The notes under the pieces: model-generated
The model's database searches: none
What the model was told of the DNA's origin: nothing
Seen by the model: the letters and a program-made list of their open reading frames with translations, nothing else
Translations under genes and position numbers: made by a program
Source: a virus
Taxonomy: Duplodnaviria; Heunggongvirae; Uroviricota; Caudoviricetes
Virus record (IMG/VR): IMGVR_UViG_2547132417_000017
Reading direction: 5' to 3' (one strand)
Length of the DNA: 22,980 bases
In this document: positions 1 to 3,742 of the stretch, piece after piece
Position numbering within the stretch: the stretch's first letter is position 1
How the letters are laid out: each line of letters begins with the position of its first letter

Positions 1-158
1 AACGAGATCACGAACACTCATCTCCGTTCCTTTGGCGTGTCCGTCCATTGATTTATCTGAAGTAATTTCTGGTGGGATTGTGTTGAGGTAACTAATTAAT
101 TTACTAAAATTTTTATCAATAGCTAAAAGCAGTTCAGCTTTTGTTTGCGGCACACTCA
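1..158 (-). CDS. ClbS/DfsB (DUF1706)-like protein, N-terminal 52 codons only; gene continues beyond the window start
   Basis: Minus-strand ATG at 158-156 preceded by GAGGGAA about 7 nt upstream. Translation MSVPQTKAELLLAIDKNFSKLISYLNTIPPEITSDKSMDGHAKGTEMSVRDLV matches the N-terminal pattern I recall for the ClbS/DfsB four-helix-bundle family (the GHAKGT region). Absent from the ORF track because it is truncated by the window edge. Confidence 0.45.
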
Positions 159-477
159 TAAGAATTCCCTCTCATGTAAAAAGAGACACCATAAAGGTAC
201 TGTGTGGTGTTTGAAAATCACTCAATTATGTACCACCCACCACAACAGGGGAAGACCCATAAATATACAGTAACCCTATGGGAGGGATTTCATGGTTGGC
301 GAACATTTCAGCCGAACGCAGCAAAAGTGGGCTTGTGTGCAATTTATTGCCGAGGTATCTCTGATTGCAAACTGCAAGCCATCAGACTTAAAGCTCGCGC
401 TCACTCTCATTGCAGACCTAGCAAACAGCGAAAATAACGAAACCGAAGATGATAATTTTTATAAGGCTGATTAGATT

Positions 478-711
478 ATGAGAATCAATATCACGTTGGA
501 TAAAGAGCAAAAAATTAGTCAGGCAACGTTGGATGCACTTGAGGCTGAGCTGTACCGCAATCTTCAACCTATTTACCCAAAGACTGCTATCCGCATTCGT
601 AAGGGCTCAGCTAATGGCGTTGAGTTAAGCGGTTTGAAACTGGACGAAGATAAAAAACGAGTAATGGAAATCATGCAGCAGGTATGGGAGGACGATAGCT
701 GGCTGCATTAA
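478..711 (+). CDS. dinI: DinI-family DNA-damage-inducible protein (77 aa)
   Basis: Translation MRINITLDKEQKISQATLDALEAELYRNL...MEIMQQVWEDDSWLH has the length and hallmark motifs of DinI/MsgA-like proteins, including the acidic C-terminus with W-x-DD-W. Family call is from memory, not a search. Confidence 0.7.
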   Translation: MRINITLDKEQKISQATLDALEAELYRNLQPIYPKTAIRIRKGSANGVELSGLKLDEDKKRVMEIMQQVWEDDSWLH

Positions 712-1232: not shown

Positions 1233-1326
1233 CGTATGTCCAATCTAAAGAATGGGGGCTGACATCCCATCATCAGATTTGTGTTATTTTAGTGCTACTC
1301 ATTCGTCATTAGACATTGTAAGGGCA

Positions 1327-2043
1327 ATGTATATGAAACCAAGCACACACTGCGTTTATTGCGGTGTTCTCATGAATAAGGTTGAAAATCCCCCCCACTG
1401 CCGCTCAGTTGAACACATGATTCCGCAAGTTTCAGTCTCCATTCATAGAACCAACGGCGAAGGTGATTTCTATGTATGCAAAAAGTGCAATGGCGATAAA
1501 AGCCGAATTGACGAGGTGTTAGGTGTCATTTGCCGCATGGTAGGAGAGCACTCAACAGGCAGCTTTGATGCTGTTAATAAATTCCATAATGCGCTTAAAA
1601 GAAAAGACTCGAAATTTCGTGAAGCATTCCAGAGTGTTAGGCATACAAAAAAAGGTGCGCAGATAACATTACCCCTAAATGGTAGGGAGATTTACCAATA
1701 CGGCACCTGGTTAGCCAAGGGAGTATTTTTCTTAGAGTATGGGCAATTGTTGACTGTAGATAAATTAATTTGGATTAATATCGTTCGCCACGATGAAGTA
1801 ATGGCTATTAAAGAAATGTATAGAAATGAACGTGGCTCTGAGGCATTTGATGATTTATCGAAGAATAGCAACATTCCAAATATTAATGGCGAGTCGTTTC
1901 TGATTGTTGGCCAGGATGCCCGAGAAATGTTTATTTGCTTCAATAGAGTAATGATGTTTCATATAAAGATACTGGATAGAACGTTTATTAATCAAAAAAA
2001 ATGCAAAAAAGCCCTACTCAATCTGGAAAAAAGGGTTCGATAA
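1327..2043 (+). CDS. HNH endonuclease-domain protein with an uncharacterised ~170-aa C-terminal domain; AT-rich cargo gene
   Basis: HNH signature in the translation: CVYCG ... VEHMIPQ ... RTNGEGDFYVCKKCNGDKS. Start is ambiguous: the ORF opens at 1252 with no SD, while ATGs at 1327 and 1333 follow AAGGG. The gene is markedly more AT-rich by eye than the flanking structural genes and sits on the far side of cos. Confidence 0.6.
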   Translation: MYMKPSTHCVYCGVLMNKVENPPHCRSVEHMIPQVSVSIHRTNGEGDFYVCKKCNGDKSRIDEVLGVICRMVGEHSTGSFDAVNKFHNALKRKDSKFREAFQSVRHTKKGAQITLPLNGREIYQYGTWLAKGVFFLEYGQLLTVDKLIWINIVRHDEVMAIKEMYRNERGSEAFDDLSKNSNIPNINGESFLIVGQDAREMFICFNRVMMFHIKILDRTFINQKKCKKALLNLEKRVR

Positions 2044-2207: not shown

Positions 2208-2433
2208 TGCGCGCCAGCGGTGGTGCGTATTATTAAAAAATACCGTCTGAGTGCGTTGTGGTGGAGCTAACGAGAGCGTTGCTAGATCGTGGGAGTTCTG
2301 ATGCGAACGTGGGGCTATGTTTTGTCTGTGGAGCGATGAGAGAGGGTGAGATCAGTCGCACAATTCTACGGCTGTGCTTCCGTTAATATCTTCATCGGTA
2401 TGTCATGTTCCCTACCAACAGCTGGAGGCTTTA

Positions 2434-2658
2434 ATGGATAACTATCACATTACAAAAGATGGCGATAAGTGGAAGCTTCAAAAGGAAGGAAATGAGCGGC
2501 CTAGCAAGACTGCAACAACTAAGGCTGAGATCATCAAAGATACTCAAGATTACATGTCCAATAAGACTGGCTCAGTAAAAATTCACAAAGAGGATGGGAA
2601 GTTTCAGGAAGAGCGCACTTACCCTCGTAAAGCTGATCCTAAAAAGTCCAAAGGTTAA
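2434..2658 (+). CDS. DUF2188-like small protein (74 aa)
   Basis: Translation MDNYHITKDGDKWKLQKEGNERPSKTATTKAEI...GSVKIHKEDGKFQEERTYPRKADP matches the DUF2188 pattern (N-Y-H-V/I-T, G-x-W-x-V/L-x-K-E-G, I-H). GGAGG lies 6 nt upstream of the ATG at 2434. The longer ORF from 2374 has no SD. Confidence 0.6.
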   Translation: MDNYHITKDGDKWKLQKEGNERPSKTATTKAEIIKDTQDYMSNKTGSVKIHKEDGKFQEERTYPRKADPKKSKG

Positions 2659-2666
2659 TAAAGTCA

Positions 2667-2688
2667 AAGCCGCCATGATTGGCGGCTT
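2667..2688. terminator. Perfect 9-bp hairpin between convergent DUF2188-like gene and portal gene Q; likely bidirectional terminator
   Basis: AAGCCGCCA (2667-2675), loop TGAT, TGGCGGCTT (2680-2688). Lies just past the stops of both convergent genes. Confidence 0.4.
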
Positions 2689-2695
2689 AACTGGA

Positions 2696-3742
2696 TTATT
2701 CCGGGTTGTCGAGGGTGTACTCTTTGAACCTGATGACCTCTATACCGAGCCAGTCGTTTACCTCCCTGAACCTGTCCTGCAGCGGCGACAGCTCGTTACG
2801 CACAAATACCTTTGCCACCTTCTCAACGTCACCGAGTGAGCCGATATTCTCGGGCTTGCCACCCATTAGCTGGAACGGCACGCGGTGCGCATCCATCAGG
2901 TCGGCGGCACTGGCTTTCTTGATATTGAAAAAGTCATCCTTTGTGGCGACCTCGCTCAGTGGCACGATTTTGATGCCGTCCGGTTTTCCGCCGGGGGCGT
3001 AGAAAAACAGGTTCTTAAAGTTGCCGAGCCCTTTCGAGTTACGCATCGCCTCGCGTAGTGATTCGACGTCGGTCGCGCTCTGCGCCGGGTCGGTCACATA
3101 CATGATGTAGCCCGCGTGCGCGCCGTTCTGGTAATACTTGCGACGGAACAGCGTCGCGGATTCATTCAGCCAGGCAGAATTAAGCGCGCTGAGATATTCC
3201 GGCAGGCCGTAAATCTCCTGATTAATATCAGGCTCCAGCAGGTGAAACACGGTGTCAGGCGCGAACTCATGCGGCTGAGTGAAGTTTTCCACAAACCAGA
3301 AAATTGAATCATCAACCCCACGGCGGGTGTATTTTGCTGGTGATGCCAGCAACTTGATTAACTGGCCGGTGACGCTGTGGCGCTGCTCAAGAAAAGCGTT
3401 GCCGAAGACCAGATAGTCGAGAGCAAAACGGCTGAAATCCTGACGGGACAGCAGCGGGTGCGGAATGTAGGTGCTCGCGAGTACGTTGCGTTTAACGTAA
3501 ATCGGTGAGCTGTGATGTACGGCAGAGCGCAGGCTCTTTGCCAGCCCGGAAAAGCTGACCGGCGGCTCGTACCATTTGCCGTTACTGATGCACTCGACAT
3601 AATCCAGAATGTCGCGCTTATCGAGCACCGGAACTGGCTCACCGAAGGTGAACGCTTCCATTTTTTGCGGTGCGCTGGCTTTCAGTTGCTGTGGTGCGCG
3701 TGTTTTCTGCGCGGCGGCTTTGCGGGATTTTTGCTTACCCAT
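2696..3742 (-). CDS. Q: Portal protein (P2 gpQ-like)
   Basis: 348-aa translation has the size and sequence character of P2-family portal proteins and sits immediately downstream of the terminase gene on the same strand. Confidence 0.92.
   Translation of the reverse strand: MGKQKSRKAAAQKTRAPQQLKASAPQKMEAFTFGEPVPVLDKRDILDYVECISNGKWYEPPVSFSGLAKSLRSAVHHSSPIYVKRNVLASTYIPHPLLSRQDFSRFALDYLVFGNAFLEQRHSVTGQLIKLLASPAKYTRRGVDDSIFWFVENFTQPHEFAPDTVFHLLEPDINQEIYGLPEYLSALNSAWLNESATLFRRKYYQNGAHAGYIMYVTDPAQSATDVESLREAMRNSKGLGNFKNLFFYAPGGKPDGIKIVPLSEVATKDDFFNIKKASAADLMDAHRVPFQLMGGKPENIGSLGDVEKVAKVFVRNELSPLQDRFREVNDWLGIEVIRFKEYTLDNPE

Follow-up and report, generated by a model that had tools for sequence, protein, structure and literature searches.

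The window analysed here, the whole stretch of 22,980 nucleotides of virus record IMGVR_UViG_2547132417_000017, begins inside a ClbS/DfsB-like gene that lies near a DinI-like gene of a prophage. The question raised by this locus is how a gene of a colibactin-resistance family came to stand beside an SOS-related gene. The earlier note suggests that it may be cargo of the prophage which, next to a DinI-like SOS modulator, would dampen induction by DNA damage. The answer depends on where the phage DNA starts, on what the neighbouring genes are, and on where else the same segment occurs.

The ClbS/DfsB-like gene and its carrier

The gene occupies positions 1..159 on the minus strand, starts with an ATG at 159-157, and runs off the left edge of the window after its first 53 codons, which translate as MSVPQTKAELLLAIDKNFSKLISYLNTIPPEITSDKSMDGHAKGTEMSVRDLV. 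The reading frame previously described as 52 residues ending at 158 does exist, its start and visible length being corrected to 159..157 and 53 codons. Assignment to the ClbS/DfsB (DUF1706) family, made earlier from the fragment, is borne out by the profile scores. Thus, PF08020, with a gathering cut-off of 24.2 bits, matches the fragment alone with 36.9 bits (E=4.5e-9, profile positions 1-51 of 166) and the full-length product of copies with identical DNA (172 aa) with 183.9 bits (profile positions 1-166 of 166). The DNA of the fragment is 100% identical to full-length copies annotated as ClbS/DfsB family four-helix bundle protein (WP_000115885.1), and the 172-aa protein is 100% identical to chain A of PDB 5COF, deposited as 'Uncharacterized protein'; the four-helix-bundle label comes from the RefSeq name and from the 5COF depositors. 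An end-to-end alignment of the protein with ClbS (PDB 6ANR) gives 54% identity across 166 residues (E=8e-66). Ser54-Tyr55 of the full-length copies are aligned with Ser54-Tyr55 of ClbS, in which Tyr55 is reported to be the catalytic tyrosine (Tripathi et al. 2017). The Tyr55 codon falls two codons past the left edge, outside the visible part of the window copy.

As for function, this protein and ClbS of the pks island have the DUF1706 domain, 54% of aligned residues, and Tyr55 in common, and their mechanisms would be expected to be alike. By this analogy, the protein probably detoxifies colibactin as ClbS does, by hydrolysis of the cyclopropane warhead, sparing its host the damage. In contrast to ClbS, it is found outside the pks island, is borne by an insertion sequence (see below), and represents a distinct lineage. 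ClbS homologues with 25-80% identity, all of those tested, blocked colibactin-triggered prophage induction (PMC8907063), and the proteins tested by Silpe et al. include E. albertii WP_000115842 and 'E. coli 69' QDM73539. ClbS gave no protection against mitomycin C (PMC8907063 and its preprint).

Positions 1-258 of the window are base-for-base identical to the ClbS-proximal end of a 1885-bp element in Nissle 1917, composed of an inverted repeat, the ClbS/DfsB-like gene (172 aa), a DDE transposase (406 aa), and a second inverted repeat, in this order. The ends of the element were defined by reading both junctions in Nissle 1917 fimB and in AR_0081. The 406-aa transposase starts 18 bases after the ClbS-like gene and is named 'ISL3-like element ISEc53 family transposase' in RefSeq; its Pfam domains in identical elements are PF01610 (DDE_Tnp_ISL3, E=1.3e-58), PF13542, and PF14690 (DDE, HTH, Zn-ribbon). 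The terminal inverted repeats begin with GGGTCTTCCCC and match at 11 of 11 positions at the tips and at about 19 of 23 overall. Comparison of both element ends places the repeat of the window copy (GGGTCTTCCCCTGTTGTGGTGGG, minus strand) at about 236-258, within the element leader upstream of the ClbS-like gene (160..258, minus strand), and the last base of the element is 258. A purine-rich ribosome-binding stretch, GAGAGGGA, was read off the sequence of the same leader on the minus strand (within 160..258). The leader (160..258) also has a weak promoter-like stretch, and the promoter scan gave no site above threshold in it. No LexA box (CTG-N10-CAG) by which the ClbS-like gene and the transposase might be regulated is present within the element.

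Positions 1-258 thus belong to an insertion sequence of the ISEc53 family (ISL3), of which they form the ClbS-proximal end. Because the inverted repeat of this element ends at 258 and an 8-bp target duplication comes next, the ClbS-like gene is not phage cargo, and the cargo claim gives way to that of a passenger of the insertion sequence.

The distribution of the segment is broad. Window 1-262 has 936 occurrences at 100% identity, spread over 674 of the 5426 complete E. coli genomes, on chromosomes and plasmids, with up to 9 copies per genome, and it has no match among the 50,697 phage records searched. Element copies are found on E. coli prophages as well as on chromosomes and plasmids, and one of them interrupts fimB of Nissle 1917. 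Duplications of 8 bp flank the element at all 12 of the complete-copy insertion events that were read. For the window itself, the evidence consists of the right-hand copy of the duplication plus the empty site in a relative, Ecol_545.

Both the gene and the element carrying it are already known, and the finding of the earlier note alone adds little to them. A clbS-like gene with a single ISL3 transposase on pUTI89-like plasmids, chromosomes, and prophage regions is described in bioRxiv 10.1101/2025.11.17.686825, which argues for a role of this clbS-like transposon in colibactin resistance. An ISL3-like insertion in fimB of ST131 has been under discussion since 2011 (PMC3203889). The clbS-like transposon of the 2025 preprint and the ST131 fimB insertion are the same element, the fimB copy being identical in sequence.

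Regarding the origin of the passenger, its chromosomal homologues across Enterobacterales share 70-91% identity with it, and the closest of these (87-91%) are genes that stand alone in the chromosomes of Citrobacter, Providencia, Proteus, and Edwardsiella. Those of Citrobacter freundii and Providencia, at ~88% identity, occur singly and lack an adjoining transposase. In Citrobacter freundii (L046, 2540-3139), the homology begins at element position 40, just inside the inverted repeat, which fits a chromosomal gene captured by the element. The Providencia sequence (L054, 2501-3163) is 86.6% identical to the element from its first base, inverted-repeat-like sequence included. These chromosomal clbS-like copies may record the capture of the passenger or, alternatively, a decayed element.

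Two variants of the element were also observed. In one of them (L036-L045), the ClbS-like protein is 189 aa long, and an IS66-family element with the domains HTH_Tnp_1, TnpB_IS66, and DDE_Tnp_IS66 lies directly after the gene or in its 3' end; this nesting of one insertion sequence in another is seen in copies at sbmC and in copies at the plasmid umuDC-like site. The other (L010-L014), from a Klebsiella plasmid and human-gut metagenome contigs, is 98% identical to the element and has a transposase truncated to 337 aa. Its site, ATGTTTAA-CCAGTA, adjoins an Xre/RES toxin-antitoxin pair, and this arrangement recurs in several assemblies.

The landing site in a PSP3/186-type prophage

The host of the element is a PSP3/186-type (Eganvirus, P2-family) prophage, of which the window holds the tum operon, accessory genes, portal, terminase, and late genes through a D-like gene. 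The order of A, tum, accessory genes, cos, and portal/terminase is the same as in 186 and PSP3. Prophage relatives align to the window from 259 onward only. Among them, four E. coli genomes are 99.9% identical to the window over 259-1300, and PSP3, SW9, and SEN1 are ~92% identical over 259-1168; the element is absent from all of these.

The first phage bases identify the site that was hit. Positions 259..266 (no strand assigned) are ATAAATAT, the right-hand copy of the 8-bp target duplication, which in the uninterrupted Ecol_545 is the spacer of a LexA box. They are followed on the plus strand by ACAGTA (267..272), which the alignment with 186, PSP3, and Ecol_545 marks as the orphaned right half-site of the tum (p95-type) LexA operator, and then by a ribosome-binding site and the tumA ATG at 292. 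The empty site in Ecol_545 reads ...GCCAATACGTGC TACTGT ATAAATAT ACAGTA ACCC..., and the intact operator in it, TACTGTATAAATATACAGTA, is located 18 bases 5' of the tumA ATG. This operator, as reconstructed for the prophage, gives a 19/20 match to the LexA consensus TACTG(TA)5CAGTA.

For the homologous bases, the record of phage 186 gives the p95 -35, the p95 -10 (TACTGT), and a putative LexA site, TACTGTATGTTTATACAGTA. The same record speaks of 'SOS-dependent transcription of SOS operon' and describes tum as 'expression repressed by LexA; inhibits CI DNA binding'. The -35, -10, and LexA-box region of the 186 SOS operon and of PSP3 tumA-tumB is conserved in this prophage, and LexA control at its tum operator is presumed from the annotation of 186, in which the site is a putative one. 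This prophage differs from 186 in that its operator is split by a 1.9-kb element and that Tum corresponds to two ORFs, as in PSP3.

The first gene of the SOS operon is a tumA-like ORF of 60 aa (292..474, plus strand), with ~92% DNA identity to the tumA region of PSP3, for which the PSP3 record gives 'UV induction of prophage' and 'similar to 5' end 186 tum'. The ORF has no Pfam match, and BLASTP of it against 186 Tum returned no alignment; the tumA label, and with it the antirepressor module, is a putative one taken from the PSP3 annotation at ~92% DNA identity. It is followed by tumB (478..711, plus strand), which encodes a DinI-family protein of 77 aa (PF06183, E=7.4e-24), is named tumB in the PSP3 record, and is 47% identical (E=5e-28) to the C-terminal, DinI-like half of phage 186 Tum. 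The earlier description of a gene inside a prophage and adjoining a DinI-like gene is therefore accurate, the neighbour being the PF06183 gene at 478-711 on the plus strand. The role proposed for that neighbour, a partner in dampening induction, is replaced by that of TumB in the LexA-controlled tum operon, to which SOS induction of phages of the 186/PSP3 type is due.

Several further features of this region were noted. A direct repeat of ~45 nt, 84% identical and extending to ~80 nt, is present at 709-753 and 1112-1156, and its two copies come after the stop codons of tumB and of the ORF at 905-1114, respectively. The first copy forms a strong hairpin (714-756, -36 kcal/mol, z=-4.0) that may correspond to the partial terminator t95a of 186, and the second folds no better than shuffled sequences. 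The region from the tum operon to the portal gene contains two accessory genes that are also found in the uninterrupted Ecol_545: a 263-aa ORF at 1252-2043 (plus strand), with no Pfam match and several Cys/His pairs near its N-terminus, and a gene at 2374-2658 (plus strand) for a DUF2188 protein (E=2.7e-16). The Rfam scan of 1-2800 reported only a sub-threshold match to the STnc430 sRNA, at 2656-2726 (minus strand) between the DUF2188 and portal genes, with 30.2 bits against a gathering value of 47 (E=0.04), and this match is probably due to chance.

Taken together, it is quite likely that an ISEc53-family element transposed into the spacer of the tum LexA operator of this PSP3/186-type prophage and duplicated that spacer. 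The element would have entered TACTGT-ATAAATAT-ACAGTA between the two half-sites, duplicating the 8 bp. As the point of entry directly follows the -10, the left half-site and the promoter should be on the other side of the element, outside the window. The left half-site TACTGT, which is also the -10 of the LexA-repressed p95 in 186, would now be found past the far end of the element, and the left flank expected there is ...TACTGTATAAATAT with the phage replication gene, GGGTCTTCCCCGATC being preceded by ...GCTACTGTATAAATAT and the A gene. On the near side, tumA and tumB would be left with the right half-site alone and without a recognisable promoter, and p95 would be 1.9 kb off, reading into the transposase gene in antisense.

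Since the element separates the promoter from tumAB, Tum is probably uncoupled from SOS control. Expression of Tum in response to SOS is probably abolished or much reduced, and with it SOS induction of the prophage; dampening of induction, if any, would be due chiefly to the physical break that the element makes in the tum operator and promoter. With a divided operator, p95 itself would probably escape LexA control, and transcription from it might in principle continue across the 1.9-kb element into tumAB; only two weak terminator-like sites are present on the read-through strand of the element. A weak promoter-like site at 83-110 (plus strand) faces tumA, at chance level. Consensus promoter and terminator scans detected neither p95 nor a replacement promoter for tumAB nor a promoter of the ClbS-like gene, with counts at chance, and the position of p95 is for this reason taken from the phage 186 annotation.

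The insertion in the tum operator was read in one sequence, with one junction in view. The transposase, the left junction, and the early region of the prophage lie past the edge of the window, and this copy may be incomplete or the trace of a rearrangement. According to the exact search, the junction at 258/259 is absent from complete E. coli genomes, GTDB species representatives, and metagenome contigs.

Target sites of the element and LexA boxes

The flanks of all copies returned by the searches were surveyed in the tools' own ordering, which yielded 14 distinct sites and 15 independent events. Copies were found by exact-protein look-ups, and a scan of GTDB representatives and IMG/VR with the element ends gave 4 loci only. 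At 13 of the 14 distinct sites, the duplicated bases are the middle 8 bp of a CTG-N10-CAG motif. The probability of finding CAG at a fixed offset in at least 13 of 14 sites by chance is ~5e-23.

Besides the tum operator of the window (TACTGT ATAAATAT ACAGTA), the matching sites include a lambdoid prophage, occupied in both orientations in different strains (TACTGT ATAAATAT ACAGGT), sbmC, where the element lies between dacD and sbmC (CACTGT TTTTATAT ACAGTA), dinD, adjoining rph-yicC (AACTGT GTTTATAT ACAGTT), and symE, adjoining hsdR (TACTGA TGATATAT CCAGGT). They are joined by the dinI/umuDC locus (CACTGT ACATTAAT ACAGTA), a plasmid dinI-umuD-umuC-like operon (TACTGT ATATACAT ACAGCA), a locus near cbtA (AACTGT ACATAAAA ACAGTC), and the transposase gene of an IS3-family element (L027, TACTGG AGACAAAT ACAGCT). 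Of the other four, three are on Klebsiella plasmids and one is on an IMG/VR viral contig. The sole exception, fimB (AAGTGT ATATATAT CCATCG), is still motif-like. Among the genes named, sbmC, dinD, symE (yjiW), and umuDC are reportedly established members of the E. coli LexA regulon (Fernandez de Henestrosa et al. 2000).

The element has no fixed orientation relative to the downstream SOS gene, and both occur: its ClbS-proximal end abuts tumA, symE, and the plasmid operon, and its transposase-distal end abuts sbmC and dinD. In this second, co-directional orientation, the ClbS-like gene and the transposase may be driven by the SOS promoter that the insertion has cut from its own gene. At the lambdoid site, a LexA-box-like target of 20 bp (TACTGTATAAATATACAGGT) in one type of prophage, the element lies in opposite orientations in L001 (4374-6258) and L031, which represent two independent insertions upstream of a 59-aa ORF and DUF1367/YbcO/Q genes. 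One candidate explanation, that CTGT and ACAG are part of the element, was rejected, since the variable 8-bp duplication separates them from the element ends and empty sites keep an intact box.

The number of genomes per site is very uneven. The fimB junction is found in 407 complete genomes, the junction with the plasmid umuDC-like operon in 236 records, and the sbmC LexA box (L029, L037-L045) is occupied in 81 complete genomes. The dominance of fimB is due to clonal expansion and is not a count of insertion events. Of the 5418 genomes that match a 400-bp query for the empty sbmC site, 5130 have it intact, and the dacD-sbmC region is split or diverged in roughly 290 genomes.

In this sample of 14 sites, the element strongly prefers LexA boxes generally, and the ClbS-like gene stands beside a DinI-like gene because the element inserts into such boxes. 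The preference may be for a TGT-AT-rich-CA palindrome and not for LexA operators as such, given that fimB contains no LexA box. The target could be recognised either by the transposase reading the palindromic CTGT-AT-rich-ACAG or via LexA-bound DNA; the fimB site and the site inside the IS3-family element favour sequence recognition.

Other insertion sequences are known to seek out repeated structures: IS1397 and ISKpn1 home to REP/BIME repeats, and the IS1111-attC group homes to integron attC sites. The present element is like them in choosing a short structured or palindromic motif with many copies per genome. It differs in that the motif is here the operator of a global stress regulator and each insertion severs a gene or operon from SOS. 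Searching full texts for a link between ISL3 or ISEc53 and LexA or SOS boxes returned nothing relevant and no report of LexA-box targeting. The 2025 preprint refers to the neighbours of the transposon as 'otherwise unrelated genes' and makes no mention of LexA or SOS, and neither the tum-operator insertion nor the LexA-box register appears in it.

Alternative explanations and consequences

Among the alternatives that concern the anatomy of the locus, retention of the ClbS-like gene as the prophage's own cargo (a moron), kept with the DinI-like gene to dampen damage-driven induction, would fit with the location of the gene next to a DinI-family gene, in the accessory DNA that separates cos from the replication gene in a P2-family prophage, and with the ability of ClbS homologues to suppress colibactin-triggered induction (PMC8907063). 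However, the segment ends in an ISL3 inverted repeat and a target duplication, hundreds of 100%-identical copies of window 1-262 exist outside phages and none in 50,697 phage records, and both the near-identical prophages (99.9% over 259-1300) and PSP3, SW9, and SEN1 do without it, which makes this explanation extremely improbable. We regard as equally implausible that the junction is an assembly artefact, produced by a contig that was misjoined or ended in a repeat. The window does start in a multicopy repeat, and its exact junction was matched nowhere else searched, but the element is joined to phage DNA exactly at its last base, with 8 bp and then ACAG following as at other sites, and the flanking 8-mer is the spacer of the intact operator in relatives, which a chance misjoin would not give. 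The passenger might also serve another role of the DfsB family and not colibactin resistance, for example one related to a Paenibacillus sibling-killing bacteriocin. DUF1706 is a broad family, 5COF was deposited as 'Uncharacterized protein', and bioRxiv 10.1101/2025.11.17.686825 raises the DfsB bacteriocin precedent and calls for experiments. Such a role nevertheless seems unlikely in view of the full-length 54% identity to ClbS with Tyr55 aligned, the 70-91% identity to chromosomal homologues of Enterobacterales, and the protection against colibactin given by all tested homologues down to ~27% identity.

The remaining alternative shares the anatomy of an insertion into the tum operator and differs in significance only. 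It explains the LexA-box pattern by a taste of the ISL3 transposase for AT-rich palindromes, with a passenger unrelated to SOS and insertions that are neutral or slightly harmful. ISL3 elements produce 8-bp duplications in AT-rich DNA, the fimB site (GTGT-ATATATAT-CCAT) has no LexA box, no SOS promoter would be expected at the site in the IS3-family transposase gene, and the element is found in both orientations. AT-richness alone is insufficient, however, as CTG and CAG lie outside the duplicated 8 bp and are kept at 13 of 14 sites. This explanation is a tenable one, to which we give somewhat less than even weight.

Returning to the insertion of an ISEc53-family element into the tum operator, a broader interpretation would make the element a mobile 'anti-SOS' module with SOS boxes as its homing target, which combines removal of a genotoxin through colibactin resistance with uncoupling from SOS; we see the chances of this interpretation as even. 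In it, the element would insert specifically into the 8-bp spacer of LexA operators, through its transposase or through recognition of LexA-bound DNA. Prophage switches, umuDC/imp mutagenesis operons, sbmC, dinD, and symE would be cut from LexA one by one. Finally, LexA boxes on plasmids and phages would offer a route between cells, and the prophage of the window would be locked out of SOS induction.

What goes beyond the known gene and carrier is the apparent homing of the element to LexA operators, for which this window offers a clean example, with likely silencing of the SOS switch of a prophage. The presence of defence-like cargo beside an SOS gene is, at this locus, a by-product of the landing choice of a transposon and not of selection on the phage. 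If the preference for LexA boxes is true, this would be an unusual insertion sequence, one that homes to the operator of a global stress regulator, and the preference would explain how a colibactin-resistance gene reached plasmids and prophages, both of which bear SOS boxes. It would also predict which SOS functions are lost or deregulated in successful clinical lineages, as for sbmC (81 genomes) and the plasmid umuDC-like operon (236 records), and would provide a simple route from an SOS-inducible to a non-inducible prophage.
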